From positions 1-64,000 of the IMG/VR virus record IMGVR_UViG_3300045988_137032: a DNA stretch of 64,000 nt; one strand, written 5' to 3'. Both the position numbers and the translations under genes were made by a program. Positions 18,434 through 61,534 of the stretch are shown here, piece by piece. The notes beneath the pieces were generated by a model that ran no database searches, had not been told where the DNA came from, and saw only the letters and a list, made by a program, of their open reading frames with translations. Within the stretch, counting starts at the first letter, position 1. Each line of letters begins with the position of its first letter. The stretch is from a virus.

Positions 18434-18435
18434 GC

Positions 18436-27683: not shown

Positions 27684-27715
27684 GATGACTCAGTTCAATC
27701 AACGCATAATAAATA

Positions 27716-27752: not shown

Positions 27753-27791
27753 AAAACGTTTTTGCAAACGTCATGGACGCCAATGTGGTAA

Positions 27792-33436: not shown

Positions 33437-33579
33437 AATATCACCTCCTAAAAGTTTAAGCAGGCTGAATTAAATTTAATGTCACTTGCTTATTACAAAT
33501 ATATAATATATAAACAAAAATTCCTTGGACATATTTGATTACCTATACATTGTGCTCTCCTTACTTTTATACATATGGA

Positions 33580-33630
33580 ACGAACCGATATCTGAGTAAT
33601 TAAAACCCAGATATCGGTTCGTCTCATTTT
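33580..33630 (+). terminator. hairpin with a plus-strand T-run, between two minus-strand genes
   Basis: 15-bp stem AACGAACCGATATCTG/CAGATATCGGTTCGT followed by CTCATTTTT on the plus strand only. Confidence 0.5.
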
Positions 33631-33656
33631 TCATATGAAAAACTTTGGTGGAAAGA

Positions 33657-45903: not shown

Positions 45904-45915
45904 TTCCCTAGCATA

Positions 45916-45959
45916 AATAAGGAGTATGTGTACTGTGTTACACATACTCCTTATTTTTT
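45916..45959 (+). terminator. intrinsic terminator
   Basis: 17-bp stem AATAAGGAGTATGTGTA/TACACATACTCCTTATT followed by TTTTT. Confidence 0.85.
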
Positions 45960-46023
45960 GTATTGATACTGCCTAAAAACAAACTCTTAAGTCGATAACT
46001 CTAAAGTAAAGGAGATGAGACAA

Positions 46024-46860
46024 ATGAATTATGAATCCAGACTGACTGATCTTCAATGTGAGATTGCTTGTGAGAAAGCAGTATCAGATGCAATGTATGC
46101 AAGTGATAAATTTGTGATTTCTGTAATGGAAAATGCGAATGATCCTGATTTTCATTTCCTTTATGAGATGAATATGGAGGATGTTCGATCTGCATTTATT
46201 ACTGCGATCCAAAATATTCTGGATGCTCTTGCTGAGTTTGCTCGTAAGGTTTCTGTTGCTATGGCATCTGCTATTCAGGCTAAGAAGCTGAATGAGAAGC
46301 TTAGTGAAGTGAAAGCTATCATGGCAAAGAATCGTTCCAAATTCCTTGATAAGAAAATCAATATTTTTGATATTTACAAGTTTAATAAGTATTATACTGA
46401 GTATATCAATAAATATACGAAGGATATTAAGGATATGGCTTCAAGGAAATTTAATTCTATTGAAGACTACGAGAAGTGGCGTGATAAGATGCAGGAAGAT
46501 CTTGCTGAGTTTAACTTCAAACTTACGGATGAAGAGCAGTGGAAACTCTCCGTTTCTATCAATAAGGCCATTGAATTGAGTGATGATGAAGTCACCAATT
46601 ACAAGAAGAATATTGCTCTTGCCCATCAGTATGGTGAAAAGACTATTACTGACTTAAAGGGTTCCTTTAAGAGTGAAGAGAAGATGAGTGATTCCGAAGT
46701 GAATCCGGATACAAAAGCAGCTTCTCTGTTACGAATGTCGAATAATCTCGTTATTAGCTTCTGTAATCAGATTGCTAGTATTGCGAGAACCGTTATTCGT
46801 ACTATCGAGAAACATCCGTTTGCTACACTTGCACTTGTCATCGTTGCAATTGCTATGTAA
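46024..46860 (+). CDS. hypothetical helical protein with C-terminal membrane anchor
   Basis: The ATG at 46024 follows AAAGGAG. The C-terminus is HPFATLALVIVAIAM. Its architecture resembles 28221..29732. Confidence 0.75.
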   Translation: MNYESRLTDLQCEIACEKAVSDAMYASDKFVISVMENANDPDFHFLYEMNMEDVRSAFITAIQNILDALAEFARKVSVAMASAIQAKKLNEKLSEVKAIMAKNRSKFLDKKINIFDIYKFNKYYTEYINKYTKDIKDMASRKFNSIEDYEKWRDKMQEDLAEFNFKLTDEEQWKLSVSINKAIELSDDEVTNYKKNIALAHQYGEKTITDLKGSFKSEEKMSDSEVNPDTKAASLLRMSNNLVISFCNQIASIARTVIRTIEKHPFATLALVIVAIAM

Positions 46861-48426: not shown

Positions 48427-48500
48427 TGGCTGCCCTGTCCTGTTACGATCAGGATTCAGTAGTTTCAAAGACTACTGGCTTACCATTGGCCTACAGGGCA
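48427..48500 (-). tRNA. tRNA-Gln (anticodon UUG), CCA encoded
   Basis: Hand-folded cloverleaf from the reverse complement: TGCCCTG TA GGC CAATGGTAA GCC A GTAGT CTTTGAA ACTAC TGAA TCCTG ATCGTAA CAGGA CAGGGCA G CCA. It has the U1-A72 pair typical of tRNA-Gln. Confidence 0.8.
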
Positions 48501-48513
48501 ATATGTATTTATC

Positions 48514-48568
48514 CAGTATATGATCTGCTATCCAAGGTCAAGCAGGAAGGATAGCAGATCATATACTG
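48514..48568. repeat. perfect 20-bp inverted repeat (hairpin) inside the tRNA cluster
   Basis: CAGTATATGATCTGCTATCC (48514..48533) pairs with GGATAGCAGATCATATACTG (48549..48568). The loop is 15 nt. Confidence 0.85.
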
Positions 48569-48667
48569 ATTCTAGGAGGTTATCTATACGCAGCACAAAT
48601 GGTAAAGACTACACCCATTGCACGTGCGGTAATGTCTTAGAAGAGGATATATTTTGTATACCCTCCA

Positions 48668-48758
48668 TGGCGCCAGCACTCGGGTACGATCCGAGGATAC
48701 GTTGTTAGCGTATGCCGGTTTTCAAGACCGGTGTATTCGACCACTCTACCATACTGGC
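48668..48758 (-). tRNA. tRNA-Ser (anticodon UGA), class II, CCA encoded
   Basis: The acceptor stem is GCCAGTA/TGCTGGC. The anticodon arm is CCGGT CTTGAAA ACCGG. The long variable arm is CATACG-CTAACAA-CGTATC. The T arm is CTCGG ATCGTAC CCGAG. The discriminator is G73. Confidence 0.8.
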
Positions 48759-48765
48759 TTATAAT

Positions 48766-48802
48766 GAATATCCATCCCATATCCTGTATACAATGGATAT
48801 TC
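48766..48802. repeat. 10-bp perfect inverted repeat between tRNA-Ser and tRNA-Thr
   Basis: GAATATCCAT (48766..48775) pairs with ATGGATATTC (48793..48802). Confidence 0.8.
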
Positions 48803-48803
48803 T

Positions 48804-48878
48804 TGGTGCCGGATGTTGGGATTGAGCCAACTTTTGAGAATTACAAATTCCCTGTCTTCACCATTGGACGAATCCGGC
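48804..48878 (-). tRNA. tRNA-Thr (anticodon UGU), CCA encoded
   Basis: The acceptor stem is GCCGGAT/ATCCGGC. The anticodon arm is GGGAA TTTGTAA TTCTC. The T arm is GTTGG CTCAATC CCAAC. Confidence 0.75.
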
Positions 48879-48884
48879 TAGATA

Positions 48885-48963
48885 TGTCAATACTCGGACT
48901 TGAACCGAGACCCTTTCGGACTACCACCTCAAAGTAGCGTGTCTGCCTTTCCACCATATTGAC
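48885..48963 (-). tRNA. tRNA-Leu (anticodon GAG), class II, no encoded CCA
   Basis: The acceptor stem is GTCAATA/TATTGAC. The anticodon arm is CTACT TTGAGGT GGTAG. The variable arm is TCCGAAAGGGT. The T arm is the canonical CTCGG TTCAAGT CCGAG. The discriminator is A73. Confidence 0.75.
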
Positions 48964-49154
48964 ACATATTATTTCTTTTTATTAGAGATAACTATTTGTT
49001 CTTGTGAGTGAATCTTTATATTTATATATTATATACTTGAGTTACAATAAAGGAGGCAATTATTATATGTAGCTTTATAAAAAAGAATCCAGTAGATTAC
49101 AGAATCCTAAACCCTATAAGACTACAGATAACGACAACAAGGAGTGACTAGAAT

Positions 49155-52200: not shown

Positions 52201-52671
52201 TTATTTTTTCTTCTTATTGAGATAATACTCTTTCATCTCAAACTTATCACATGTCTCAAATCCATGCTTTGCATGATAATTACCTACATGCTTTCTTGGG
52301 AAATCCTTTTCATTCATTCCTCGAATACAACTACCAAGGAATTGTCGATTCTTTCCATTCGTAATGAAATGCTTACACAGATAACAGCATCTACTCCTGT
52401 GATGTGCTCTCACACAGTCATGTTCTTTTTTATAGTAATACTGAAGATAATCCATGTAGTCCATTACAAGATTCTCTTTCGTCCAATCAACTTCTTCTCC
52501 AACGTCTACTTCTTCAAAGAAGTAGGAATATACGTCATCATATCGACTGTCTGTATTTGTTAGAAAGTCTTCCATCCTAGCACCCGGAATTCCCTTGTAG
52601 ACATAAGGATGGTTATTCTCTACCCAGGTATCATCGTGGTGAGGAAAAAAGGAGACACGATACGTGCTCAT
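52201..52671 (-). CDS. Cys/His-rich protein, distant relative of 46912..47755 pair
   Basis: 156-aa ORF with an AGAAAGGA RBS. The Cys/His pattern is HDCVRAHHRSRCCYLCKHF..GSCIRG..HAKHGFETCDKFE. Confidence 0.7.
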   Translation of the reverse strand: MSTYRVSFFPHHDDTWVENNHPYVYKGIPGARMEDFLTNTDSRYDDVYSYFFEEVDVGEEVDWTKENLVMDYMDYLQYYYKKEHDCVRAHHRSRCCYLCKHFITNGKNRQFLGSCIRGMNEKDFPRKHVGNYHAKHGFETCDKFEMKEYYLNKKKK

Positions 52672-52759
52672 ACATAATCAGTCCTTTCTATATATTTTTA
52701 CATACACCATTACACTAACGTAATCTCGAAAGTAGAATGGTAGTCAGTGTTTTTAATAA

Positions 52760-53366
52760 TTACTACCACTACATAGAGATAGCAAGGTTTTAATTCGGTG
52801 TAATCCCGAAGCGATGTCGTGATGACATTCGTAACGCTTAATTCCTTCCATTCATAGTCCAAGCCTGGGCACCGACGCGCCTATTCGTAGCTGGATTAGA
52901 CTACCGTTTTTAGTAGCGGGCTAGGTGATAAATAATAGGGTGTTTGGAAGGACGTGTGGTTTAAACGAATTAAACTGAGTTGCTAGTAATCTCCATACAT
53001 GGAAAACTAGCAGACAGGTAAATGCGGACCTGTCGGAGAGTAGACTTGTATACGCATCCTTGGAGGTGTAGAGGATCGCCGTTGTTTTCGGGATCAGTAA
53101 ACGATATCAGAAACCGCTTGTCAGGATATCCTAGCGCCTAACGGCGTTTTGATTTTCTGGCGAATAACAGCGTGTTATTGGTATTGCAGGTTAACCCTCC
53201 CTCTCTAGCGATTACTGTAAATGATTTCATTTGCAGTTGTTCTATATTTGCTGTTTGAAGACGAAAGTCCCCTTCAGATGGCCATAATGCCTTTCAAAAT
53301 TGATTGATAATCACCACATGTACGGCTTCGTTGTTTCACCGTATATGTGGTGATTATCAATACCCT
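52760..53366 (+). ncRNA. candidate large structured noncoding RNA 1 (or structured 5-prime leader of 53425..54141)
   Basis: The track shows no ORF of 60 aa or more in any frame across 52672..53424. G+C is locally elevated (32/60 in 52861..52920 by my count). There are many hairpins, including GACAGGT/ACCTGTC at 53013..53034 and GCTAGT/ACTAGC at 52982..53011. A long-range 8-bp pairing joins 52803..52810 to 53087..53094. A 22-bp stem at 53304..53360 contains a G-T wobble that is only compatible with the plus strand. Confidence 0.4.
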
Positions 53367-53424
53367 ATACGACATGTAGTTAATTTTACCCACGGAAATA
53401 AATAACGGAAAGGGTGTTTTAACT

Positions 53425-54141
53425 ATGCCGAAATATAAACTTCTTCCTGTGCAAGGAAAAACTACAGTAAATGCTCCTCCTCTTTATATTGTGGTTGCAC
53501 AGGAAGATTTCATTGCTATGGATGGAACTTTTATTCCCTGTGGCACTGAAGGAGGATTTGTAGAAAGCGAAGCTTGCATGCCAAATACATCCAAAGATAA
53601 AAGCTGGATTTATGCTACCAATGGTTATGTAGTTGACAATGCAAAAATTACGAATAGCGTTATCAAGAATGGGTACATATCCGGAAATGCTACCATTGAG
53701 AATTCTATCATCGATAAGAAATGCAATATCATGGAGAATGCAGTTGTAGTTGATTCTACAGTGGATAGTAGTGTGATTGGTGTATGCTCAAGAATCGTTC
53801 GTTGTAAATTGATTGGTGATAATTGCATCAATCTTTATGAGAATACTCATATCTTAGATTCTACGATTGAGGATTCTTCTATTTCTGGAAATATTCTTAT
53901 CTGGAATTCTAATATCGCAAATTGTGCTATTCATAACACTGAATCGAAATGTAGGTCTTATGAATCCACTCATTTATCCGATAAGACGGAATTGGATTCT
54001 CTCAATTACAATTATCGTGATAAGCATGGTACTGGTGAGTTTGCTAAACGTAATAGACAACTCATGAAAGAATTGGAGCGTGCTTTTGCATCAGGAGAAC
54101 TCCGTGCTGGCTACGATATCCATCAGAAATCTGATAAGTAA
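53425..54141 (+). CDS. beta-helix (hexapeptide-like repeat) protein of unknown function
   Basis: 238-aa ORF with a GGAAAGGGTG RBS. It has about 15 short repeats of the type x-I-x-N/D-S-x-[IV], for example NSVIKNGYISGNATIENSIIDKKCNIMENAVVVDSTVDSSVIG. Confidence 0.75.
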   Translation: MPKYKLLPVQGKTTVNAPPLYIVVAQEDFIAMDGTFIPCGTEGGFVESEACMPNTSKDKSWIYATNGYVVDNAKITNSVIKNGYISGNATIENSIIDKKCNIMENAVVVDSTVDSSVIGVCSRIVRCKLIGDNCINLYENTHILDSTIEDSSISGNILIWNSNIANCAIHNTESKCRSYESTHLSDKTELDSLNYNYRDKHGTGEFAKRNRQLMKELERAFASGELRAGYDIHQKSDK

Positions 54142-54999
54142 ATTAATATTTTAATATCTTCTAAACTATATGGTATGAGAACATGATTAAGAAGATCTTC
54201 TTCTCATGCAATTTGCTTAACGATTGGTGCCATTTGTTAAGCAAGACAGTTTAGAATTATTACCTTTTCCTCTCACGAATTTCTCATCGTAATAATTCTA
54301 AATTTAGGGTTGAGAGCCCGAAGTTCAAAGCCGTACAACTCCCATTCCTACGGCCGGTCCAGTAAGATTCTGGAGATCAAGAACGAAAGTAACTTTAGCA
54401 TGATTTATGGATAGACAGAAGTTACCAATTGCGATATCAGCCGATATCTGCTTGTCATTTGAATGTTACTGCATCATATGGTAATTGGTAGCTCTCCACA
54501 TCTGTCTTACATTCATATGCACATGCTCCACTCTTTTGTAACGTACTTTGCTAGTATTGATCAACGTTCACAGCTCTCACAATAAATCGCGTACGGTTTG
54601 ACGTTGGCCAGTCTCTCCTAAGTCGTGTAAGAGATGCTGTATGCAATTGCATTATAAGGAGTTCGATGATATTGAATCTGTAGCGATTCTATCTAGTCAG
54701 GTAAAATTCCTGTGCTTCAAGCTGTTAAGAAGTTTACCATCCTTTTGGTGATACGCTGAACCACTGTCGCGTATACGCCCCAATAAGTTTATATATAGAG
54801 TATAGGATTATGAACTTTGGGTATACTCAGTCCAGAGTGGGTCATTACCGCTGGTTCCTAGATATACTCGATAGACATACCCCGTCGACTATTCTATGTA
54901 TAACAATAAGAGTGATGAAAACGACACCTTGAAGTAACTCCATTTTAGACTATTCAAATACACAGTAGATGTGAGATAAAACATCTACTGTGTATTTTT
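54142..54999 (+). ncRNA. candidate large structured noncoding RNA 2
   Basis: There is no ORF of 60 aa or more across 54142..54984. Perfect hairpins occur at 54213..54244 (9 bp) and 54252..54300 (12 bp). A nested long-range helix pairs 54413..54430 with 54483..54507; it includes a T-G wobble that favours the plus strand. An internal GATATC/GATATC hairpin lies at 54433..54448. The region ends in the terminator at 54956..54999. Confidence 0.45.
54956..54999 (+). terminator. intrinsic terminator closing the second noncoding block
   Basis: 16-bp stem AAATACACAGTAGATG/CATCTACTGTGTATTT followed by TTT. Confidence 0.75.
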
Positions 55000-55053
55000 A
55001 CTATTATAACAAATAGGTATGAATGCGTATGGATCTTTTATGATTATATATGC

Positions 55054-55147
55054 CCTCCTGTAGTGTAATGGTAACACGCCGGATTTATGACCCGGATAAG
55101 TTCTAGATTGGAGCAAGATGGGGGTTGGAGTCCCTCCAGGAGGACCA
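55054..55147 (+). tRNA. aberrant tRNA-like gene (94 nt); nominal anticodon UAU, 24-nt extra region, CCA encoded
   Basis: Hand fold: CCTCCTG TA GTGT AATGGTA ACAC G CCGGA TTTATGA CCCGG [24 nt ATAAGTTCTAGATTGGAGCAAGAT] GGGGG TTGGAGT CCCTC CAGGAGG A CCA. The acceptor stem is a perfect 7 bp. There is an A31-C39 mismatch and a G at T-loop position 56. Confidence 0.5.
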
Positions 55148-55193
55148 CTTTGTTTTCCATATAAATAGATCCTTTCAAACACATTCATTTGAC

Positions 55194-55238
55194 TGATACA
55201 GAGACTGATGACTATTATGGTTGTCAGTCTCTGTATCA
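55194..55238 (+). terminator. strong hairpin downstream of the tRNA-like gene (no T-run)
   Basis: 15-bp stem TGATACAGAGACTGA/TCAGTCTCTGTATCA. Confidence 0.45.
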
Positions 55239-55322
55239 TCTAGCCCTAAAAACAGTATTCTAATCAGTTAGGTTTTTCTCTTGTATTCTTAAATACTAAA
55301 GAAAGGGGAGATAATATAAGTT

Positions 55323-58300
55323 ATGGGTAATACAACTTCAGAGCTGATTCCGAACTACGATGCTATTATCAATAACACGTATGACGAAAGTTGGCTCAAT
55401 AAGCTTCTCCATACTACTGTCGAGAACTCGTTTCAGTTTCTGAAGAGATTGCAGCTCAGCTACTGTAGTGTGGATAGATTCCATTTTACACAGAAAGATT
55501 TCTTTGTGTGTACGGATTATCCGAATAATCTTTGTATCTCTATTCCGAAAGACTTCATTGATGCTACAAAGCGTAAAACTTATCGCTATTCAAAATATTA
55601 TGGTGAATATATCACCTATAATGATATTGCAGAAGATTTGGAGCATCAGTTTGATCCGAGTGATTTGAAACAGACTACATTTGAGTTTACACCATGTATC
55701 CACGTGGATGGAAGAGTTGCTACGAACGTGTTGTTCCGTTGTACTCTGGATGGACGTACTCAGGTTGTCTTTTTGGACATTCCTCCGTATTCGGAATGGA
55801 TTGGTGAAGATGCCAAGCATACGATCGAAGTATTCATGCTTCGGAATACATGGACTCATTCGTTCCTTACGAATAGTAAGGTGATGAGAAATCGACTGAG
55901 ACTTCTTGATACACAGGATGCTGATGATAGCGTAGAAGAGAGAAACGGCTATTATGTCTTTAACTCTACCCTTACTGGTGTTTTAATGACAAAATCTCCC
56001 ATTTTCTATTCTATCCGTTGTGTGAGTAAGCGGAGTGATGACTGCTATGAGACGTTCGGAAATTCCTTGGCTTTTGGTCATGTGGATGCTGATGGTAATC
56101 TCTGCATTCCGGCTACTACTTGGCTGAAAGAATATGTTACGAAGCATACTCTTCTGAATCTGGAAGTTACAATTTTCCATCCGAATTACACCTACGAGAT
56201 TCCGAATCTTCGTGAGGTAAAACAGCGTACTACGAACAAGGATATTTATTCTTGTATTGCAGTATGCCAGCAGGAAGAGATGCTTCACTGGGCTATGCCG
56301 ATTCCGGAAGAAAACATCATGGTTTTCTTTGTGGATAAAAAGACTGGTGAAACTACTTATCTCAATTCTTCCGAACTCACAAATCTTCATTATCCGAATA
56401 TTTATGAGATTCGTACAACAAAGGATATTGCAGATAAGTACTACATCAAACTCTTCTATCTGTACCGTCCTCTGTATAAGAGTCTCACTTATGTGGATCA
56501 ATTTTATTACATTCATAAATTCTTTAAATACCAATACAAGACTTCATACGGTCAGGAAGCTACTTTTGAGGATACTTGCAATAAGTTCCTGTATGATCAA
56601 GTCGATCCGTCTCTCGAGGGTACTCGCAAGTACTTTGATCAGATTTGGAACTATGAGGATGTTAATTACGTCTATAACATTAACGATTATGACCATAGCT
56701 CTGAGTATCCTAATTCTTATGCCTATAAACTTGATAAGGCGAAAGAATTTGGGTTATTGGCACCTGACAAGACAAGTGATTACATTGGCAATGTCAATAC
56801 AACTTCTGATCTTTACTATCTGGACGTAAGCAAAGTAGATTTGACTAACCGTGAGCGTACTACAACGCATGGTGAGGATAAGTCTTCCAATGTTGAGTTC
56901 GGTGAAGTACGATATCTGTTTATTTTCCGTAATGATGGTTCTAAGGCATTGAATCTTCGTTATTGGGTAGACGGATTGCTGTGCAATCGCTATACACAGA
57001 TTCATGTTGGCAATTACGATTATATCTACATTCCGAAAGAATATGTGACTCCGAGTTCTCATATTTACATTGAGAAGTTCTGGACTTACACATATTCTAA
57101 GCACCATGCTTTCTCAAGCATGGATGACATGTTTGATATTGAAGTAAAAGCTCCGAGTTATGTCGTTCCTACATGGCATGACCTCTTTGTCCGTCATAAT
57201 GAGACGGAGAAGATTGATAAGGATCGCTTTATCTTCTATAGTCGTGTCAATATGAATGATTATGAGAAGAGTATGCCTCTTGAAGAGCGGAAGCATCAGT
57301 GTGGTATTCCGGATGATGTCGAAGTCATTGACGGTGATGATGGCTACATGTATATGCGGATTACTCAGAATTATGATACTGATATGCCGCGGTATATGCA
57401 TCTCAGCAAGATTAAAGTAAAGCTTGCTAATGAATCTGATCTGAATAAGGACTTCCAGTTCATTATCAATAAGGATTCGTTTATCAGTCATGATACAATT
57501 CCTGCAAAAACACCTGTGCAGCGTATTCGTATTATGGATAGCACGCTTCCTTGGATTGAAGAAGGTACGTATCTTCGTACTTTCGTTGATCGTCGTCGTA
57601 TTGTATGTAACATCAAGATTGAAGCACTTACTCCGTATGATCTTCGTGCTCGTACTGACTACTATCCGACAATAATTCCTTATATTCAGTCTACTGATGT
57701 TACTCCATATTCGTATAAGCGAGTCTGCTTTGTTCCGGAGATTCCCGAGAACTTCATGATTGACATGTCTCAGTATATTGATACTCCGTTTAGTCTTGAC
57801 TACTACGAAGTATATCTGAACGGTCGTCGTCTGTTTGACTATAATATTGAGTGCATTACTCATCGTTATATCAAGCTTTTCAATGTAAGTTCTCGTTTGA
57901 ACTTTGCTGTGTATCGCAGGGATATGGATCCTTTCATCCTTGGTCATGCTCCTAATAAAGAGAAGACACCGATGGATGAATTCATCACGAATGGTCTCAT
58001 TGATCAGACTACGAAGGATAACTTCATTGATAATCTGATTGCTGAGAAACATCCCGGTAGTACTCCTGGTGAGAATACTGAGATCAATGTCAATGATGCA
58101 GTTACACCTGATGATACGACTACTGATCTTAAGAGATTCTACACAGATGTCATTATTCCTGAAGGTGTCACTAAGCCCCAGACTTGGATGCTCGATGAGA
58201 ATGATATCAAAAATAATTATCCCGCAGTATATGAAACTTACACCAAGAAGCATAAAGTTGTCATTCGTCCCAATGTCAACTTCGATGCTCTCCTGTGCAT

Positions 58301-58328
58301 GATGGTTGGTGAATATACTGAGGTTTAA
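55323..58328 (+). CDS. large hypothetical protein (1001 aa), probably structural
   Basis: Long ORF with an AAAGGGGAG RBS. I recognise no motif. Confidence 0.85.
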   Translation: MGNTTSELIPNYDAIINNTYDESWLNKLLHTTVENSFQFLKRLQLSYCSVDRFHFTQKDFFVCTDYPNNLCISIPKDFIDATKRKTYRYSKYYGEYITYNDIAEDLEHQFDPSDLKQTTFEFTPCIHVDGRVATNVLFRCTLDGRTQVVFLDIPPYSEWIGEDAKHTIEVFMLRNTWTHSFLTNSKVMRNRLRLLDTQDADDSVEERNGYYVFNSTLTGVLMTKSPIFYSIRCVSKRSDDCYETFGNSLAFGHVDADGNLCIPATTWLKEYVTKHTLLNLEVTIFHPNYTYEIPNLREVKQRTTNKDIYSCIAVCQQEEMLHWAMPIPEENIMVFFVDKKTGETTYLNSSELTNLHYPNIYEIRTTKDIADKYYIKLFYLYRPLYKSLTYVDQFYYIHKFFKYQYKTSYGQEATFEDTCNKFLYDQVDPSLEGTRKYFDQIWNYEDVNYVYNINDYDHSSEYPNSYAYKLDKAKEFGLLAPDKTSDYIGNVNTTSDLYYLDVSKVDLTNRERTTTHGEDKSSNVEFGEVRYLFIFRNDGSKALNLRYWVDGLLCNRYTQIHVGNYDYIYIPKEYVTPSSHIYIEKFWTYTYSKHHAFSSMDDMFDIEVKAPSYVVPTWHDLFVRHNETEKIDKDRFIFYSRVNMNDYEKSMPLEERKHQCGIPDDVEVIDGDDGYMYMRITQNYDTDMPRYMHLSKIKVKLANESDLNKDFQFIINKDSFISHDTIPAKTPVQRIRIMDSTLPWIEEGTYLRTFVDRRRIVCNIKIEALTPYDLRARTDYYPTIIPYIQSTDVTPYSYKRVCFVPEIPENFMIDMSQYIDTPFSLDYYEVYLNGRRLFDYNIECITHRYIKLFNVSSRLNFAVYRRDMDPFILGHAPNKEKTPMDEFITNGLIDQTTKDNFIDNLIAEKHPGSTPGENTEINVNDAVTPDDTTTDLKRFYTDVIIPEGVTKPQTWMLDENDIKNNYPAVYETYTKKHKVVIRPNVNFDALLCMMVGEYTEV

Positions 58329-58403: not shown

Positions 58404-59306
58404 ATGGCTGGTGCTCAGGCACGCTACGGTATTTCAGCACTGGACCTTGGGTATAAAGATTATGCCCAGAATGACGAGCTCATGGTCCATGGTGATGACG
58501 GCCGTATGTATTATAAGCGCACAGACGGTACTATTGTGTCGTATAGCGATAAAGATCTTACTGAATCCCAGGTCGTTGATAAGACGATGGGTGTTCTTCT
58601 TGGCATCGATGGCCTTACTCTTCCTGAAAACGAGTACATCGTTTATCGTACTTTTGATACGACTGGTAAGCTGGATCTGGCTACAAGTACAGATGTTGCG
58701 ATCTCTCGTGGGGCTACTCTGTCGAAGAATGTGCCCGGTTTCTTCTTCCGGATTCGTGGTAATGATGCAGTATCTTCTTCTGCTGCTATCATGAAGGCCG
58801 TCTATGCAAATAAGGTGAAGAATGGTTCTGATGCTGAAGTATCTGTGAAGATTAATGTCTCCAATAATGGTGCTAATCAGCAGACTATCACCGTTAATAC
58901 TCACCTTGATACGCTCACATATGTGAAGTTCCCGACATTTACTGGTACGCTTACGAACTACATTGTGACAATTGCATCGGTTTCTTTCCCGATGTTCAAA
59001 GCTGCATATGCTGCTGCTGGCGAAGCAGATAAGGTTACAATTCTTAAGGTGAATCGCGGCAATGCGAAGTTTGAAGTAAACTGCATTGACTTCATTGGCT
59101 ATGCAAGTAGCATTGCTGCTCTTGCTGATGATGTAACGGATGATGTTGCTATCAAGAGTGTAACTTTGAGTAAGGAAGCTTCCAAAGCATACGCTAATGA
59201 AAACTCTGCTGTTGCAAATGTCGGCGGTATTCCGAAGACCGCATTTGTCATCAGTAAGGATAATCCCAAGTCCGAATGTGTATGGGGTAAAATCGTAGAA
59301 GGTTAA
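58404..59306 (+). CDS. hypothetical structural protein
   Basis: 300-aa ORF with an AAAGGTGG RBS. The terminator at 59310..59354 follows. Confidence 0.8.
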   Translation: MAGAQARYGISALDLGYKDYAQNDELMVHGDDGRMYYKRTDGTIVSYSDKDLTESQVVDKTMGVLLGIDGLTLPENEYIVYRTFDTTGKLDLATSTDVAISRGATLSKNVPGFFFRIRGNDAVSSSAAIMKAVYANKVKNGSDAEVSVKINVSNNGANQQTITVNTHLDTLTYVKFPTFTGTLTNYIVTIASVSFPMFKAAYAAAGEADKVTILKVNRGNAKFEVNCIDFIGYASSIAALADDVTDDVAIKSVTLSKEASKAYANENSAVANVGGIPKTAFVISKDNPKSECVWGKIVEG

Positions 59307-59309
59307 ATT

Positions 59310-59354
59310 AAATGGCTTACACCTGATTTTTAACGGGTGTAAGCCATTTATTCT
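59310..59354 (+). terminator. intrinsic terminator
   Basis: 14-bp stem AAATGGCTTACACC/GGTGTAAGCCATTT followed by a T-rich tail. Confidence 0.75.
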
Positions 59355-59468
59355 TCTATCTGACGGAAGACAAACACCTTATTAAATGCTATGATATACT
59401 GAAGATGGCAATCCGGCTATCTTCATTTTATATCCATAGAAAATATACTTTAAGGAGTGATTTTTCAT

Positions 59469-60539
59469 ATGGCAAATAATATGAAGCAGGTCCTGCTGAA
59501 GAAGAAGATTGAGGGCGTCATTTACGATCTGTACGTGAAGACCTCTGCTGCTCTGGTTCAGTATGACGAGAACACTACTGTTGCTGCTAAGGTTGCTGCA
59601 GTTGAGGCTGTTGCTAACCAGGCTAAGGCTGATCTGTCTACCCTGATGGGTGCCGACGGCGGCACGTCTATCTCTGCAATGATCGATGAGAAGGTCAATG
59701 CTCTGAAGACTGCTCTGACCAATGAGGCGGATTCTGCCTCTCTGGCTGGTAAGATCAAGGCTAATGCTACTGCTATTGCAGCAGCACAGAAGGCTGCTTC
59801 CGATGAGGCTACTCGCGCTAAGGCTGCTGAGAAGACTCTGACCGACAACCTGTCTGCTGCTAACACCAAGCTGACCACCCTGATTGGTACTGATGCCAAC
59901 AAGTCTGCTCGTGCCATCGCTGCTGAGGAGATCGCTAAGCAGCTGATTCCCGAGCATGCTTCTGAGGCTCTGGACAGCCTGCGGGAGATCGCAGCTTGGA
60001 TTCAGGCTCACCCCGCTGAGGCCTCTGCGATGAACGCAAAGATCACCGCTCTGGAGACCAAGACTGGTACCATCGATGACGAGTCCGCTGACCTTGTCAC
60101 CTACGTTAAGAATCAGGTTAATGCTGAGAAGACTCGCGCTACCGCCGCTGAGGAAGCTAACGCAGCTGCTGCTTCCGCCGCTTCTACCGCTGCTGGTAAG
60201 GCTCAGACTGCTGCTGACGCCGCAAAGAAGGCTGCTTCCGATGAGGCTACTCGCGCTCAGGCCGCTGAGAAGACTCTGACCGACAATCTGAGTGCTCTGA
60301 CCACTAAGGTTGGCGAGATTCCCGCTACCGGTATTGGTGGCAAGGCCGCTTCCGTGGTCGCTTACGCTGCTGCTGTTGCTGCAGACGCTAAGAAGGCTGC
60401 TACCGATGAGGCTACTCGCGCTCAGGCTGCTGAGGGCGCTCTGACCACCAAGGTCAACGCTCGTGCTCGTTTCCTGGTTTCTGTAACCGAGCCTGACGAT
60501 CTGACCGAGTCTGATGTATGGGCTCAGATCATTGAGTAA
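59469..60539 (+). CDS. tail-fibre-like Ala-rich coiled-coil protein with three internal repeats
   Basis: The ATG at 59469 lies 11 nt after AAGGAG. The module KKAASDEATRAQAAEKTLTDNLSA occurs three times. Codon bias is strongly C/G-ending. Confidence 0.75.
   Translation: MANNMKQVLLKKKIEGVIYDLYVKTSAALVQYDENTTVAAKVAAVEAVANQAKADLSTLMGADGGTSISAMIDEKVNALKTALTNEADSASLAGKIKANATAIAAAQKAASDEATRAKAAEKTLTDNLSAANTKLTTLIGTDANKSARAIAAEEIAKQLIPEHASEALDSLREIAAWIQAHPAEASAMNAKITALETKTGTIDDESADLVTYVKNQVNAEKTRATAAEEANAAAASAASTAAGKAQTAADAAKKAASDEATRAQAAEKTLTDNLSALTTKVGEIPATGIGGKAASVVAYAAAVAADAKKAATDEATRAQAAEGALTTKVNARARFLVSVTEPDDLTESDVWAQIIE
59790..60448 (+). repeat. three in-frame ~55-70-nt DNA repeats inside the fibre gene
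   Basis: AAGGCTGCTTCCGATGAGGCTACTCGCGCT..GCTGAGAAGACTCTGACCGACAA occurs at 59790..59858 and 60228..60296. A shorter copy lies at 60393..60448. Confidence 0.85.
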
Positions 60540-60610
60540 TCTTATAGATAGTAAGTATACTATCTAAGCAATAGGGTTACTTTGATTACTTCTTCATGAA
60601 GTAAATTCGA

Positions 60611-60651
60611 CCGCTAGATTACTACAAAAATGGTAATCTAGCGGCCTTTTT
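60611..60651 (+). terminator. intrinsic terminator after the fibre gene
   Basis: 12-bp stem CCGCTAGATTAC/GTAATCTAGCGG followed by CCTTTTT. Confidence 0.8.
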
Positions 60652-60729
60652 ATGGTTATAGCTTTGGAACGTAAGTATAACCTAGTACTAGCTAATATAA
60701 ATTCTTTCATGAAAGGAAGGTATTAACCT

Positions 60730-60987
60730 ATGCTTCTTACTACTTCGATGGGTGCTAAGCATATCATCATGAATAAGGTTGATAAGCAGGGTAACGCCAA
60801 TGTTATTTTACCTGCAAACACAGCAGATGACGTTATCTGTGATGAGAACTCTAATACCCTGTCTGAGTATCTTTGCACTGTGTCTACGAGTGAGACTGTT
60901 GTTGGCGCCCCAATGTTTGCTATGCCGTATGGTTCTGGTCTTACACTCAATGCAGCAACTCTTAGTGCACTGACTAAAACAACTTAA
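60730..60987 (+). CDS. small fibre-associated protein
   Basis: 85-aa ORF with a GAAAGGAAGG RBS. The N-terminal segment LPANTADDVICDENSNTLSEYL resembles VKTSAALVQYDENTTVAAKV in 59469..60539. Confidence 0.6.
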   Translation: MLLTTSMGAKHIIMNKVDKQGNANVILPANTADDVICDENSNTLSEYLCTVSTSETVVGAPMFAMPYGSGLTLNAATLSALTKTT

Positions 60988-61052
60988 TAAGATCCTCTTG
61001 ATTCATTTTCTTTCTTTTTATTGCCTGTTTGGTAATTCCTCTCTTATAATAT

Positions 61053-61114
61053 TGAAGTCACATGATTTACTATGTAACTCGCACGCATAGTAATCATGTG
61101 ACTTCATATTTTAT
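61053..61114 (+). terminator. intrinsic terminator
   Basis: A stem of about 21 bp, TGAAGTCACATGATTTACTATG/CATAGTAATCATGTGACTTCA with one bulge, followed by a T-rich tail. Confidence 0.75.
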
Positions 61115-61157
61115 TTATATATTATACCTATAGTATGAAGAAAGGAGGTATAAAGAA

Positions 61158-61385
61158 ATGGATAAAGAACTTTTGACAACTCTTGGCAGTATCGTGCTGG
61201 ATGCTGCTGGGAATCGTCAAGTGCAAAGAGTTGTTCTTGGTACTTACACAGATGGATCGACTCGAAATCTTTTCGATGCTGCTTCTGGTGAATTTCTCTC
61301 TCCGAAAGATCGTGAGAAGTATTTCATGAAGAAACAGAAGAAGCACAAGAAGAAAAAGAAGCATAAGAAGATTCATCTCGACTAA
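61158..61385 (+). CDS. small protein with poly-Lys/His C-terminal tail
   Basis: 75-aa ORF with a GAAAGGAGG RBS. The tail is KKQKKHKKKKKHKKIHLD. The terminator at 61397..61445 follows. Confidence 0.65.
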   Translation: MDKELLTTLGSIVLDAAGNRQVQRVVLGTYTDGSTRNLFDAASGEFLSPKDREKYFMKKQKKHKKKKKHKKIHLD

Positions 61386-61396
61386 GTAATAGTCGA

Positions 61397-61445
61397 AAAG
61401 ACAAATGACGTTTGGAGTAGCATTCGTCATTTGTCTTTTTTTGTT
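61397..61445 (+). terminator. intrinsic terminator
   Basis: 14-bp stem AAAGACAAATGACG/CGTCATTTGTCTTT followed by TTTTTTT. Confidence 0.85.
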
Positions 61446-61534
61446 TTCCTATGCTGAAAAACGCCTAGAAAACAATAAGGTAAGTTTTCTAAGGGTTTTC
61501 CCTTAAATATAATAAAGAAAGGACAGGTGGTATT

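Follow-up and report, generated by a model that had tools for sequence, protein, structure and literature searches.

A conserved cassette of gut jumbo phages that probably encodes two undescribed large structured noncoding RNAs

The window, a stretch of 64,000 nucleotides of viral DNA, contains a cassette consisting of RNA1, the gene of a left-handed beta-helix (LβH) protein, RNA2, and a tRNA-like gene, in that order, bounded by two gene starts (Table 1). The left-flank gene is found in all relatives, and its product gave no family match. The initial annotation had described ORF-free blocks with one credible CDS, and this description was correct. No ORF of ≥60 aa occurs in 52672–53424 or 54142–55053; the longest ORFs are 50 aa (between the start of the left-flank gene and the LβH gene) and 40 aa (within 54142–54984), and an 84-aa ORF on the minus strand (54985–55239) overlaps the tRNA-like gene. 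TAA, TAG, and TGA are present in all six frames of both blocks (11–22 stops per frame), and a reassigned stop codon or recoding is therefore excluded. The gaps between ORFs of ≥100 aa in the window are mostly short, as had also been claimed, with a median of approximately 45 nt and 34 of 45 gaps at ≤150 nt. The 753-nt (gap1) and 1181-nt (gap2) gaps of the cassette are among the three largest; the third (842 nt) contains a minus-strand tRNA cluster.

Table 1. Features of the cassette and its borders.
Feature	Position	Strand	Description
Left-flank gene	52201–52671	-	156-aa Cys/His-rich protein; conserved; transcribed away from the cassette
RNA1	~52705–53245	+	Conserved structured noncoding RNA, about 540 nt
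RNA1 sub-element	53013–53059	+	Hairpin 53013–53019/53028–53034; covarying stem; invariant 8-nt loop AAAUGCGG
Long hairpin	53303–53361	+	Near-perfect; 23-nt arms, 96% paired; no U-tract; 10 nt 5′ of the LβH promoter-like motif
Promoter-like motif, LβH gene	53371–53382	+	GACA-TGTAGT-TA; variant of the AR9 late consensus; putative function
LβH gene	53425–54141	+	238-aa left-handed beta-helix (hexapeptide-repeat) protein; sole CDS of the cassette
Promoter-like motif, RNA2	54164–54175	+	AACT-ATATGG-TA; one base off AACA-N6-TA; putative function
RNA2	~54175–55002	+	Conserved structured noncoding RNA, about 830 nt
Hairpin	54250–54302	+	14-nt arms, 100% paired
RNA2 palindromic hairpin	54641–54652	+	AUGC-AAUU-GCAU; tetraloop palindromic, clade-variable
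RNA2 intrinsic terminator	54956–55002	+	Perfect 17-bp stem, 8-nt loop, TTTTT
Hairpin	54956–54997	+	Stem-loop of this terminator; 17-nt arms, 100% paired
AR9-type late promoter motif, tRNA-like gene	55008–55019	+	AACA-AATAGG-TA; 35 nt upstream
tRNA-like gene	55054–55147	+	Non-canonical; encoded CCA, A73
Conserved hairpin	55194–55238	+	22 bp; 22-nt arms, 86% paired; after the tRNA-like gene, 13 nt 5′ of the next late promoter
AR9-type late promoter, 1001-aa gene (55323–58328)	55251–55262	+	AACA-GTATTC-TA

The G+C contents of gap1 and gap2 were 0.405 and 0.370, respectively, compared with 0.406 for the whole window and 0.35–0.39 for the immediate neighbours. The enrichment in G+C noted by the initial annotation was thus slight relative to the neighbours. 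The folding-energy z values on the plus strand were approximately −7 for the 753-nt and 912-nt blocks, and those of the trimmed RNA1 and RNA2 were −4.3 and −8.8, respectively; length-matched coding controls had means of −2.9 to −3.9 with an extreme of −8.4, and the background mean in sliding 200-nt windows was −1.8. Four hairpins were found in the region, as the earlier description of hairpin-rich blocks implied, but hairpin density did not discriminate. Neither folding energy nor G+C is distinctive, and the folding-energy z values fail to set the two RNAs apart from the coding DNA of this genome.

Relatives were found with the RNA1 sub-element motif (53013–53059) as the query. The RNAs were aligned with MAFFT, and the structure predicted from the window alone was projected onto 17–19 homologs of 4–5 clades, with slid structures as the control. 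For RNA1 (19 sequences), 74.9% of the cells were paired and 311 were double-change cells, compared with 38–43% and 59–99 in the slid controls. For RNA2 (17 sequences), the values were 77.7% and 330, compared with 37–43% and 55–83, and 91 pairs were changed on both sides, compared with 21–35; for both RNAs, many of the counted cells are not independent events because all homologs belong to one phage family of about 4–5 clades. The covariation scores of RNA1 and RNA2 were 0.205 and 0.196, respectively, compared with ≤0.089 in the controls, and none of 500 shuffles reached the observed percentage paired, number of double-change cells, or covariation score of either RNA. In the RNAalifold consensus, 35 of the 124 pairs of RNA1 and 70 of the 186 pairs of the entire gap2 carried compensatory changes, with parts of the drawn structure uncertain because the alignment is imperfect at the most distant clade.

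Substitutions had no 3-nt periodicity in the two RNAs (0.28/0.26/0.32 and 0.30/0.28/0.33), whereas the adjacent genes showed codon periodicity (0.49/0.28/0.23 for the LβH gene and 0.40/0.13/0.11 for the 156-aa gene). The lengths of gap1 and gap2 are kept across the relatives (716–778 and 1008–1188 nt, respectively), although the LβH protein is only 50–60% identical. These results show that both RNAs are conserved, that their pairing is upheld by compensatory substitutions, and that they are neither coding sequences nor decayed genes. The claim of large structured noncoding RNAs is thereby supported by length and synteny kept in every relative, abundant compensatory changes, and the lack of codon periodicity. 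G·U pairs outnumbered A·C pairs two-fold or more (570 and 283 in RNA1; 369 and 143 in RNA2), and this excess, together with the T-tract terminators on the plus strand, indicates that both RNAs lie on that strand. In an nhmmer search, RNA1 and RNA2 showed no resemblance to each other, and neither had another copy in the window; by sequence, the two RNAs are non-paralogous.

The 5′ limit of RNA1 was placed at the onset of invariant sequence (TTACACTAACGTAATCTC at 52710), and the 3′ limit at a terminator-like hairpin (53214–53237) followed by a T-rich tail, which was identified in a terminator scan. RNA1 has a multi-domain fold with long-range helices at 52782–52790/52972–52980, 52843–52855/52940–52952, and 53062–53069/53194–53200. 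Alignment pairs 412/429, 413/428, and 414/427 in the stem of the sub-element change on both sides (RNAalifold), and this hairpin (helix 20) was 97.7% paired with double changes at 3 pairs. The AUGCG in its loop is complementary to the invariant CGCAU at 53053–53057, a possible pseudoknot of which neither side ever varies. The identity of the 5′ core of RNA1 was 84–85%, compared with 62–63% for the LβH CDS and 62–77% for the flanking CDSs (relatives L016 and L014); the core is conserved above the adjacent genes. Downstream of RNA1, the long hairpin at 53303–53361 is kept with compensatory changes (alignment pairs 748–750/767–769, RNAalifold) and, as helix 30, was 89% paired with double changes at 6 pairs. 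It is probably a transcript-end or processing structure. Its positional counterpart is the 55194–55238 hairpin ahead of the late promoter of the 1001-aa gene, in which several of the alignment pairs 1172–1192/1196–1216 are compensatory in the L015 clade (RNAalifold) and at which the transcript of the tRNA unit probably ends.

RNA2 consists of a variable 5′ hairpin part (54175–54305), a conserved core (approximately 54306–54940), and the intrinsic terminator, whose stem (helix 40) has both-side changes in 10 of 17 pairs across the clades. Its long-range helices are 54311–54325/54563–54579, 54375–54380/54557–54562, 54383–54389/54533–54539, 54397–54417/54503–54527, and 54659–54664/54934–54940. 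The tetraloop at 54645–54648 is AAUU, AGCU, or CAUG depending on the clade and is palindromic in 16 of 17 sequences; one palindrome is swapped for another, and the whole 12-mer (54641–54652) therefore remains self-complementary. This was the sole palindrome-switching site among approximately 730 variable ungapped 4-nt windows in both RNA alignments; a naive model puts the number of such sites arising by chance at roughly 0.2. Palindrome-switching loops mark intermolecular contacts in OLE (L9.3) and GOLLD (L21a) (PMC12286853), and the hairpin is a candidate symmetric RNA–RNA (homodimer or oligomer) contact. A palindrome at the DNA level could also explain the signal.

The product of the LβH gene contains hexapeptide/LβH repeats, in agreement with its earlier identification as a beta-helix protein. 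Its N-terminal region is conserved (MPKYK...QEDF...FIPCGTEGGF), and its C-terminus is helical and basic. The match to Pfam Hexapep_GlmU (21.5 bits) was below the cut-off, as was that to NCBIfam YdcK_fam (36.7 bits against a cut-off of 350). A PDB profile search matched only the LβH domains of ADP-glucose pyrophosphorylase and eIF2B, the AF2 model (pLDDT 55) has a beta-solenoid core, and Foldseek gave weak solenoid matches only. Homologs are confined to this gut jumbo phage family, and none was found among GenBank phage records.

ARAGORN called the tRNA-like gene with the anticodon TAT, and Rfam scored it at 55.2 bits with a 21-nt insertion in the variable region. It shares the cloverleaf, the encoded CCA, and a promoter of its own with canonical phage tRNAs, and the genome also carries a tRNA cluster. 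It differs from them in combining a variable arm of class II length with a UAU anticodon, in a mostly mismatched 31:39 pair, in C33 in many clades (position 33 is U or C), and in non-standard T-loops in several clades. The UAU is invariant and is followed by a purine, and in the long variable arm the stem covaries and the loop, UAGAUWG, is conserved. Over 16 loci, ARAGORN left the gene uncalled in 8, assigned it CTA in 2, and gave it a 4-base anticodon in 1; the Rfam tRNA model had no match in the three relatives scanned (L023, L016, and L014). The initial annotation had called this tRNA aberrant, and several clades were indeed missed by both tools. Despite the invariant UAU, AUA codons are nearly absent from the phage genes (13 of 13,123 codons), and unlike a canonical tRNA this one would decode a codon almost eliminated from them. 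The gene does not descend from the Leu or Ser tRNAs of the phage.

A single family of gut jumbo phages (about 250–263 kb) accounts for all occurrences of the cassette. Every relative has it at one and the same locus and nowhere else, with the phage RNA-polymerase/tRNA region on one side and the late structural genes on the other. The phage showed no DNA similarity to any GenBank phage. The best cultured relatives of its RNA polymerase subunit (phrog_3015) are PBS1, AR9, and Staphylococcus jumbo phages of the S6 type, at 27–29% identity. The family resembles AR9/PBS1-type phages in its split multisubunit RNA polymerase, in a genome of approximately 250–260 kb, and in the enrichment of the AACA-N6-TA motif before genes, but the relatives are only distant. 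The papers searched described no RNA cassette of this kind.

AACA-N6-TA is the late-promoter consensus of AR9 (PMC5312081). In the window, 16 of 29 matches fall in intergenic DNA, which makes up 12.9% of the window, typically 37–96 nt before gene starts. Ahead of the LβH gene, the promoter-like motif lies 43 nt from the start codon, and its form RAC[AG]-N6-TA is kept in all clades, at alignment columns of about 797–808. That of RNA2 lies just 3′ of the LβH stop codon, with AACTAT..GGTAT, spanning A23–T35 of the window row in the alignment, invariant in all clades, and places the predicted start of RNA2 at A54175. The motif of the tRNA-like gene is conserved in most clades, the exception being the L015/L023 clade, and the 120 nt around the late promoter of the 1001-aa gene are nearly invariant across all clades.

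All Rfam models were searched at E≤10 against the window and three divergent homologs (L023, L016, and L014), and nothing besides tRNA matched; ROOL, GOLLD, HEARO, raiA, OLE, and group I and II introns were all negative. The initial annotation had left the choice between relatives of ROOL or GOLLD and a new RNA class. The context it described, phage-encoded and adjoining tRNA genes, is like that of both families, but the lack of any Rfam match leaves the new class as the branch that holds. Fragments of RNA1 and RNA2 may already sit unnamed among 8,495 candidate motifs from IMG/VR (PMC10690425).

GOLLD is a large structured RNA of phages and prophages, with many members >800 nt, that frequently adjoins tRNA genes; a conserved region is combined with a less conserved 5′ part, tRNAs sometimes lie within or adjacent to it, and its homo-oligomer contacts are marked by covarying palindromic loops (PMC12286853). 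RNA2 similarly has a variable 5′ part, a conserved core, one palindromic loop, and a following tRNA-like gene at a length of approximately 830 nt. It differs in lacking detectable sequence or structure homology at E≤10, in its host range (a gut jumbo phage family related to AR9/PBS1), and in being one of two distinct RNAs with a fixed protein partner gene, and its oligomerisation is putative. ROOL is a multi-pseudoknotted RNA of approximately 600–660 nt in phages and prophages, often near tRNA islands, without a known protein partner or function (PMC12286853). RNA1 is comparable in length (approximately 540 nt), multi-domain fold, candidate pseudoknot, and context; in contrast to ROOL, it has no Rfam homology to that family and no palindromic-loop signature, and it is always accompanied by RNA2 and the LβH gene. 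OLE is an ornate RNA of approximately 600 nt with dedicated small proteins and a symmetric dimer formed via a palindromic loop (PMC12286853). The cassette likewise joins large RNAs to a dedicated small protein gene, but OLE is encoded on bacterial chromosomes and works with the Oap proteins, and no homology to it was found here.

We consider it probable that the two ORF-free blocks are the genes of distinct large structured noncoding RNAs on the plus strand, neither of them described before, in a four-part cassette. A less likely reading, though one that retains some weight, is that the blocks are long cis-acting untranslated regions instead of free RNAs. RNA1 would then be a 5′ leader controlling the LβH gene through attenuation at 53214–53237 or 53303–53361 or through masking of the ribosome-binding site, and RNA2 would serve as 3′ UTR to the LβH mRNA, or as a leader/attenuator on which read-through into the tRNA-like gene and late operon depends. 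All parts of the cassette are tightly packed on one strand, no promoter was found for RNA1, the terminator scan found none between the LβH stop codon and RNA2, and the RNA2 terminator lies directly 5′ of the tRNA-like gene and late genes, all as such regulation would have it. RNAalifold also pairs 52685–52689 (CCUUU) with the LβH ribosome-binding site (the commonest pair in 6–9 of 10 sequences at the five positions); this has a trivial explanation, since the divergent 156-aa gene has its ribosome-binding site on the opposite strand of this segment. Against regulation in cis, conserved multi-domain structures of 540 and 830 nt greatly exceed every known leader or riboswitch. Furthermore, the LβH, tRNA-like, and 1001-aa genes each have their own conserved promoter-like motif 3′ of the would-be regulator RNA, and the RNA1 core is conserved above its would-be target gene.

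Ribozymes, or the remains of a self-splicing or mobile intron (of group I, group II, or derived type), are a very unlikely reading of the blocks, in which the LβH ORF would ride as a passenger between two RNA halves. The RNA–ORF–RNA layout is that of ORF-carrying introns, large size and strong conservation are often read as hints of catalysis, and AR9-type phages do carry introns, for example in g189 (PMC5312081). However, the Intron_gpI, Intron_gpII, group II D1–D4, and ribozyme models were negative at E≤10 in the window and the three divergent homologs. The cassette has no exons, being bounded by gene starts, and stands at one fixed locus in all relatives; the LβH ORF encodes no homing endonuclease or reverse transcriptase; and RNA2 has a terminator and each unit its own promoter motif. 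We give marginally less credence still to a DNA element, such as a replication origin, packaging site, or protein-binding region, with the hairpins and palindromes as features of the DNA. Large ORF-free hairpin regions and the perfect 12-bp palindrome at 54641–54652 could form protein-binding or cruciform DNA, and the folding z of trimmed RNA1 is similar on both strands, but hundreds of compensatory changes keep long-range pairing that DNA sites do not require. G·U pairs, many of them invariant, are 2 to 2.6 times as frequent as A·C pairs and would be mismatches in DNA or on the other strand; neither repeats nor iterons were found, and the GC-skew profile has no sustained switch across the cassette. 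Decayed protein-coding genes, the reading under which the initial annotation would have been wrong, have almost no chance of being the explanation: public gene calls of 160 and 188 aa exist inside gap1 of L014 and L019/L020 (on the minus strand in some relatives) and match gap1 of the window at 44–47% identity in tblastn, but this is the identity expected in any frame at 75–80% nucleotide identity, the L014 and L019 ORFs agree over only approximately 76 residues before diverging in frame, those of L014, L019, and L020 shift frame relative to one another, most clades have no gap1 ORF longer than about 60–100 aa, and the blocks lack codon periodicity, conserve length, sequence, and base-pairing across clades, and are closed in all six frames of the window.

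As two undescribed noncoding RNAs, RNA1 and RNA2 would each be a discrete, stable, trans-acting molecule made by the phage's own multisubunit RNA polymerase. The RNA2 transcript would run from the AR9-like promoter variant to the classical intrinsic terminator, and that of RNA1 would end at its terminator-like hairpin. By analogy with proposals for ROOL and GOLLD, they may act as self-folding architectural RNAs and not as regulators of single mRNAs, and RNA2 probably self-associates via the palindromic hairpin. That the four parts form one unit, as the initial annotation proposed, is consistent with their conserved synteny; no direct link was found, and no covarying complementarity between RNA1 and RNA2. 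The weakest step of this scheme concerns the field of action, which is likely to be the translation/tRNA apparatus during infection because the cassette is permanently linked to the tRNA-like gene. The cassette would enlarge the very small group of large structured phage RNAs of unknown function.

RNA1, in the ORF-free block 5′ of the gene for a left-handed beta-helix (LβH) protein (gap 1), and RNA2, in the block 3′ of it (gap 2), represent two new large-RNA classes, structured and phage-encoded, and form a conserved cassette with the LβH and tRNA-like genes. The segment 52672-55322 had been described as ORF-poor in the initial annotation, and a six-frame ORF check confirmed this. The longest ORF was 50 aa between the starts of 52201-52671(-) and 53425-54141(+), and 40 aa between 54142 and 54984. 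Every frame of both blocks contained 11–22 stops, with TAA, TAG, and TGA each represented. Reassigned stop codons are common in large gut phages; given this stop content and the absence of TAG-split genes, stop-codon recoding cannot account for the gaps. At 753 and 1181 nt, the gaps are among the three largest in the window, where the median is ~45 nt in a simple gene set. The near-perfect hairpins were also present, and the tRNA at 55054-55147 was called by both ARAGORN and Rfam. In regard to composition, the claim that the blocks are rich in G+C did not hold: the values were 0.405 and 0.370 against 0.406 for the window, only slightly over the immediate neighbours, and the enrichment is not real relative to the window. 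Folding energy also failed as support. The z-scores of RNA1 (-4.3) and RNA2 (-8.8) are not distinctive in the phage genome and do not discriminate the RNAs from length-matched coding segments (mean -2.9 to -3.9, extreme -8.4).

We compared the locus with its relatives to evaluate conservation. Homologs of the 238-aa LβH protein ranged in identity from 94% down to 50%. The gene order was constant in every LβH-bearing contig (RNAP subunit, 288-aa gene, 156-aa gene on the minus strand, gap 1, LβH, gap 2, and 1001-aa gene), and the gap lengths were maintained at 716–778 nt (gap 1) and 1008–1188 nt (gap 2). Profile HMMs derived from the gaps recovered the full length of both in every distant contig (E values of 1e-130 to 1e-277). 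The 5′ core of RNA1 kept 84–85% identity in clades in which identity fell to 62–63% for the LβH gene and 72–77% for the 156-aa gene. The RNA1 core pattern was absent from 185,579 GTDB bacterial and archaeal species, represented by one genome each, and was confined to the same phage family in IMG/VR and the metagenome collection; an apparent case of wider distribution, the compared locus L036, was a chance 18-nt match. The contigs with exact or near-exact copies of the locus were metagenomic, came from gut samples, and reached 264 kb, and four of the six related contigs in IMG/VR were 250–262 kb long. RNA1 and RNA2 are not paralogs: nhmmer detected no relation between them, and neither had a second copy in the window.

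RNAalifold analysis of 9–10 representatives gave 124 pairs in gap 1, 35 of them with compensatory double changes, and 186 pairs in gap 2, 70 of them with such changes. To avoid circularity, the structure was predicted from the window sequence alone and then projected on alignments of 19 sequences (A4, RNA1 region) and 17 sequences (A5, RNA2 region). The 3′ partners were slid by 1–3 columns as a control, and 500 shuffles were also examined. Standard pairs filled 74.9% of the cells in RNA1 and 77.7% in RNA2, compared with 37–43% in the slid controls. The pair-keeping cells altered on both sides numbered 311 in RNA1 and 330 in RNA2 (55–99 in the slid controls), and the covariation scores were 0.205 and 0.196, respectively (≤0.089 in the slid controls). 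None of the 500 shuffles reached the observed percentage of pairs, number of double changes, or covariation score. A G·U pair becomes an A·C mismatch on the opposite strand. G·U outnumbered A·C by 570 to 283 in RNA1 and by 369 to 143 in RNA2, which indicates that both RNAs are read from the plus strand.

The initial annotation had itself named decayed protein-coding genes as the rival explanation of the blocks, and public records carry minus-strand gene calls of 160 and 188 aa within gap 1 in three compared loci (L014, L019, and L020). These ORFs agree over ~76 residues only and then run in different frames, and most clades have no ORF above ~60–100 aa at that position. In tblastn searches against the window, the gap 1 ORFs gave 44–47% identity, which is the yield of 75–80% nucleotide identity in any frame. 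The further call in locus L011 lengthens the N terminus of the LβH protein (P0003) by 35 residues. Substitutions were distributed evenly over the codon positions in the RNAs (0.28/0.26/0.32 and 0.30/0.28/0.33), and in the two adjacent genes they were in excess at the third position, as expected (0.49/0.28/0.23 and 0.40/0.13/0.11). The frame-shifting chance ORFs, together with the absence of codon periodicity, reject the decayed-gene explanation. The public calls over RNA1 lack frame conservation and probably represent annotation artefacts from an unrecognised RNA gene. The conservation, the compensatory changes, and the non-coding pattern support the main interpretation of the initial annotation that the blocks hold large structured RNAs.

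The features of the cassette are summarized in the table below. RNA1 contains at least 15 predicted helices, and a pairing of its loop AAAUGCGG with the invariant CGCAU (53053-57) is possible. Neither an early-promoter motif (AAATATATATTAT-N6-G) nor a late-promoter motif was conserved 5′ of RNA1, as judged by eye against the published consensus (PMC5312081). RNA2 would start at the promoter-like AACT-ATATGG-TA motif, at 54175. In the RNA2 terminator stem, 10 of the 17 pairs are altered on both sides across clades.

Features of the cassette and related sites (transcript boundaries across the cassette are predicted from sequence)
Feature	Position	Strand	Description
RNA1	~52705-53245	+	~540 nt; begins where invariant sequence begins (TTACACTAACGTAATCTC)
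RNA1 5′ and multi-branch domains	52782-52790/52972-52980		5′ hairpin domain, then large multi-branch domain closed by this helix
RNA1 hairpin	53013-53034	+	Covarying stem, never-varying 8-nt loop (AAAUGCGG)
RNA1 3′ domain	53062-53069/53194-53200		Closing helix
RNA1 terminator-like hairpin	53214-53237	+	With T-rich tail
23-bp hairpin	53303-53361		Between RNA1 and LβH gene; precedes promoter-like motif
Promoter-like motif GACA-N6-TA	53371-53382	+	Conserved; just 5′ of LβH gene
LβH gene	53425-54141	+	238 aa
Promoter-like motif AACT-ATATGG-TA	54164-54175	+	Invariant; one base off late consensus; directly 3′ of LβH stop codon
RNA2	~54175-55002	+	~830 nt; 5′ part of ~130 nt with clade-variable hairpins
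RNA2 conserved core	54306-54940		Nested long-range helices
RNA2 intrinsic terminator	54956-54997 + TTTTT	+	Textbook form
Late promoter (predicted)	55008	+	Consensus; 5′ of tRNA-like gene
tRNA-like gene	55054-55147	+	
22-bp hairpin	55194-55238		3′ of tRNA-like gene, before promoter 55251
Late promoter (predicted)	55251	+	Consensus; leads into 1001-aa gene
AACA-N6-TA sites	1366, 2035, 13779, 24673(-), 34368(-), 45978, 49000(-), 55008, 55251, 59373, 61471		Usual form AAAACA-N6-TAAG
Hairpin followed by promoter motif	53303-53361, then 53371; 55194-55238, then 55251		
Public calls over RNA1	L014:4470-4952(-), L019:4364-4930(-), L020:1473-2039(-), L011:5001-5105		

According to a cryo-EM study of OLE, ROOL, and GOLLD, symmetric intermolecular contacts appear in alignments as loop tetranucleotides switching between different palindromes (PMC12286853). 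A scan of alignments A4 and A5 for such switches gave one qualifying site among ~730 variable windows. This site is the RNA2 hairpin 54641-54652, in which the loop at 54645-54648 is AAUU, AGCU, or CAUG in 16 of the 17 sequences and the entire 12-mer remains self-complementary through the switches. Since each switch requires two compensating changes in a tetraloop that is unable to pair within one chain, the pattern suggests that RNA2 forms a homodimer or oligomer through this loop; with a single palindromic site and a naive chance expectation of ~0.2, it is a lead and not proof. The alignments gave no covarying complementarity that would link the two RNAs, nor any linking one of them to the tRNA-like gene. 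A base-paired RNA1-RNA2 or RNA-tRNA complex was rejected on 6 weak matches at k=6, against 4 in the null orientation, and 0 at k=7.

To compare the RNAs with known classes, the complete Rfam 15 set (4227 models) was searched with cmscan, using the gathering score, E≤10 for 52400-55500, and E≤5 for three divergent homologous loci (L023, L016, and L014). No Rfam family other than tRNA matched in the window or the three homologs, the output consisting of tRNAs and noise. The initial annotation had allowed for homology to ROOL or GOLLD and for a new RNA class; the former found no Rfam match in either the window or the homologs, and the latter agrees with the all-Rfam check of the region. Neither the ROOL covariance model (at the gathering score, at E≤10, or at E≤5 in the homologs) nor the GOLLD model, including the universally conserved 3′ region, gave a match. 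GOLLD RNAs are often >800 nt long and adjoin or enclose tRNA genes, and RNA2 is likewise a large phage RNA, ~830 nt in length, with the tRNA-like gene starting 52 nt after it. ROOL RNAs are found in phages and prophages, often beside tRNA genes, and are multi-stem RNAs of ~600 nt (PMC12286853). RNA1 shares the phage setting, the tRNA genes (48427-48964 and 55054-55147), the size of ~540 nt, and an ornate fold. For symmetric RNA-only multimers of the OLE/ROOL/GOLLD kind, the palindrome switching of the RNA2 loop at 54645-54648 is an indirect signature, resembling that of the OLE and GOLLD contacts. ROOL and GOLLD lack three features of the cassette: a dedicated co-conserved small protein gene, a permanently linked non-canonical tRNA-like gene, and a single candidate self-association loop. 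We infer that ROOL and GOLLD are the closest counterparts of RNA1 and RNA2 by context and scale, and possibly, for RNA2, by self-association as well. Because the sole available test of ROOL or GOLLD membership recognised neither RNA, they should not be filed as members.

Other classes were weighed in the same searches. A by-eye likeness of GTAAATGCGGAC...ACGCATCC to the R/S elements pointed to a group I intron, for which the P3/P7 topology is unfit and exons are absent; Intron_gpI (P3-P9 core, guanosine-binding P7) had no match at E≤10 in the window or at E≤5 in the homologs. A group II intron was rejected on the absence of a Domain V/VI or D1-D4 match, the only ORF encoding the LβH protein and not a reverse transcriptase. 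An intron of either group within a host gene is out because the cassette sits between two gene starts, 52671(-) and 55323(+). HEARO/IscB-TnpB omega RNAs, OLE, raiA, RNase P, tmRNA, T-box, 6S, and SRP gave no Rfam or ARAGORN tmRNA match, and no nuclease or transposase gene was found in the cassette. Unnamed motifs of a large IMG/VR phage csRNA screen aside, no earlier description of RNA1 or RNA2 was found in the literature searched.

The 238-aa cassette protein carries the repeats of the left-handed beta-helix (hexapeptide) superfamily. It matched Pfam Hexapep_GlmU (E=2.5e-4, 21.5 vs a cut-off of 23.3), NCBIfam YdcK_fam (E=2e-9, 36.7 vs a cut-off of 350), and the LβH domains of sugar-nucleotidyltransferases. 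Weak PDB profile matches to the LβH domains of GlgC (ADP-glucose pyrophosphorylase) and eIF2B were also obtained. No catalytic or nucleotidyltransferase domain was found, and all family scores were far below the curated cut-offs. The AF2 model was confident in the beta-solenoid core only, and Foldseek returned no match at E≤1e-3. No homolog was detected in cultured phages or the defence-system library. As a functional clue, PHROGs, Pfam, NCBIfam, PADLOC, PDB sequences, AF2, and Foldseek yielded the generic beta-solenoid/LβH fold only, and the sole informative trait of the protein is its constant place between RNA1 and RNA2.

The tRNA-like gene was kept in all clades, uninterrupted, with encoded CCA, A73, and the invariant triplet UAU. 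In the window it scored 55.2 bits with Rfam and was read as Ile-TAT by ARAGORN, with a 21-nt insertion in the variable region. The orthologous gene was not called by ARAGORN in L023, L025, L026, L027, L029, L031, L034, and L035, was read as CTA in L016 and L032, and was given a 4-base anticodon in one locus; the Rfam tRNA model did not match it in L023, L016, and L014. A canonical tRNA has a 7-nt anticodon loop with U33, a paired 31:39, and T54-Psi55-C56. In this gene, most clades have a mismatch at 31:39 (A·C, C·C, or C·U), C replaces U at position 33 in the L016, L023, and L027 clades, and the T-loops are non-standard (UUGGAGU in the window and CCCGAUA in L023). The gene also has a class-II-length variable arm, in which the stem covaries and the loop UAGAUWG is conserved. 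By these sequence traits the gene is clearly non-canonical, and the earlier view of it as an aberrant tRNA stands on the mismatched 31:39, C33, the T-loops, and the eight loci missed by ARAGORN. The gene showed no similarity to the phage Leu or Ser tRNAs, and derivation from them was rejected.

The orthologs in L007, L011, L012, L014, L016, L018, L023, and L027 fall into two body types, window/L018-like and L012/L014/L023-like; one has the D-arm TAGTGTAATGGTAACAC and the T-arm GGGGGTTGGAGTCCCTCC, and the other has the D-arm TAGCTTAAGGAAAGC and a T-arm containing GGTTCGATACC. L012 differs from the window in body type despite 88% identical gap 1 DNA, and L018 differs from L014. The independence of the body types from the relatedness of the flanking DNA suggests replacement of tRNA-like alleles by recombination. 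In the window, the invariant RNA1 5′ end (52706-52717, ACCATTACACTA) has a 12-nt perfect complement in the D-arm of the tRNA-like gene (55061-55072). It was rejected as a real contact: chance would give ~0.2 such matches in 2.8 kb, and the complement is lost in clades with the other body type, where RNA1 stays invariant.

A tRNA-Ile(UAU) decoder would serve AUA codons in use and carry A37 for t6A. The window clade has G at position 37, and ATA occurred in frame 13 times among the 13,123 codons of the window genes (13 of 906 Ile codons, 1%), several of these adjoining doubtful start codons. The count was ~420 per off-frame, and the ATA trinucleotide was not depleted (observed/expected 0.92). 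Other clades contained 0–1 ATA per 680–1,690 codons, and the avoidance was family-wide (L011, L012, L014, L015, L016, and L027). Codon usage is strongly biased overall, with ATA, CTA (10), and GGG (13) the least frequent, so the phage probably reflects avoidance of AUA in its host. A nonsense suppressor with the anticodon CUA, UUA, or UCA is an unlikely role for the gene. The CTA reads in L016 and L032 arise from a shifted register; the invariant triplet is UAU and not YUA; no recoded genes were found; and a UAA suppressor would act on the main stop codon. The stop codons of 45 window genes were TAA in 34, TGA in 7, and TAG in 4, all four of the last being small and doubtful, and no TAG-split long ORFs were found on the coding strands of the window. 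The TAG trinucleotide is strongly depleted in the window (observed/expected 0.46).

The window also contains a four-tRNA cluster at 48427-48964(-), composed of Gln-UUG, Ser-UGA, Thr-UGU, and Leu-GAG. Three of the four have U34 anticodons for A-ending codons that are rare in the phage (CAA 18%, TCA 7%, and ACA 22%). CCA is encoded by all except Leu, and the composition varies by clade, with Leu-AAG in L012 and L016.

The window codes for split RNA polymerase beta-type subunits (phrog_3015 and phrog_25005), a 3,888-aa ORF, and virion proteins. The single 3,888-aa ORF, at 2103-13769(+), holds 2 of the 13 in-frame ATA codons of the window (codons 1344 and 1388). Among cultured phages, the RNAP subunit was closest to PBS1 and AR9 (Bacillus) and to Staphylococcus jumbo phages, with an identity of only 27–29%. 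The region showed no DNA similarity to any GenBank phage, and no DNA or LβH-protein match to the cassette was found among 50,697 phage records. AACA-N6-TA has been published as the late-promoter consensus for the non-virion RNA polymerase of AR9 (PMC5312081). It had 29 matches in the window, 16 of them in the intergenic 12.9%, typically 37–96 nt 5′ of a same-strand gene start. The sequence agrees with the AR9-type late promoter (AACA-N6-TA/G, the last base being the TSS, upstream of late genes), and the sites are predicted promoters; the motif also lies 5′ of both tRNA loci. Through this predicted late-promoter motif, the uncultured family of gut jumbo phages is linked to transcription of the AR9/PBS1 type.

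A repeated layout was observed in which a long near-perfect hairpin without a U-tract is followed 10–13 nt on by a late-promoter motif. Windows beside other late promoters also gave very negative z values (13672-13871, 45872-46071, 59272-59471, and 61272-61471). The hairpins just 5′ of late promoters may serve the phage RNA polymerase as terminators. Four more gaps of 425–588 nt were found between ORFs of at least 100 aa (18002-18435, 27306-27791, 33232-33656, and 60540-61127). Local folding was strongly negative at several of them (z+ of -7.6 at 27272-27471, -7.6 at 60472-60671, and ~-5 to -6 at 17872-18471). The stretch 60540-61534 contains AACA-N6-TA at 60978, 557 nt 5′ of the next gene, as well as ORFs of 75–100 aa. 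Further small genes or RNAs could lie in these four gaps.

The cassette might be proposed as a translation-takeover module with codon-selective host shut-off, to which we give a very low probability. RNA2, and perhaps RNA1, would assemble in the ROOL/GOLLD manner, as RNA alone or with the LβH protein bound, and act on the tRNA-like molecule. This molecule carries the class-II-length arm, A73, and the invariant UAU; were its charging Leu-, Ser-, or Tyr-like, by an anticodon-blind enzyme, it would be given a non-isoleucine amino acid, or AUA decoding would be disturbed otherwise. Host translation would then be corrupted or stalled. Because AUA is purged from the phage frames, such a tRNA would spare the phage proteins, and the shut-off, if this proposal were true, would be codon-selective.

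The finding of two new structured RNA classes has its own meaning. Few bacterial and phage ncRNAs exceed 500 nt and have conserved intricate folds; they comprise rRNAs, RNase P, tmRNA, group I/II introns, OLE, GOLLD, ROOL, HEARO, and raiA. Each new large-RNA class has either brought new biochemistry or stands as a prominent unsolved problem. RNA-only nanocages have recently been demonstrated for ROOL and GOLLD. The locus adds two unrelated large-RNA classes in a ROOL/GOLLD-like context, phage-encoded and beside tRNA genes. A protein gene, a linked tRNA-like gene, and a loop open to mutation and restoration make the question more testable here than for ROOL and GOLLD. RNA genes, over which public gene callers place what are probably spurious ORFs, are thereby documented in uncultured gut jumbo phages related to AR9/PBS1.
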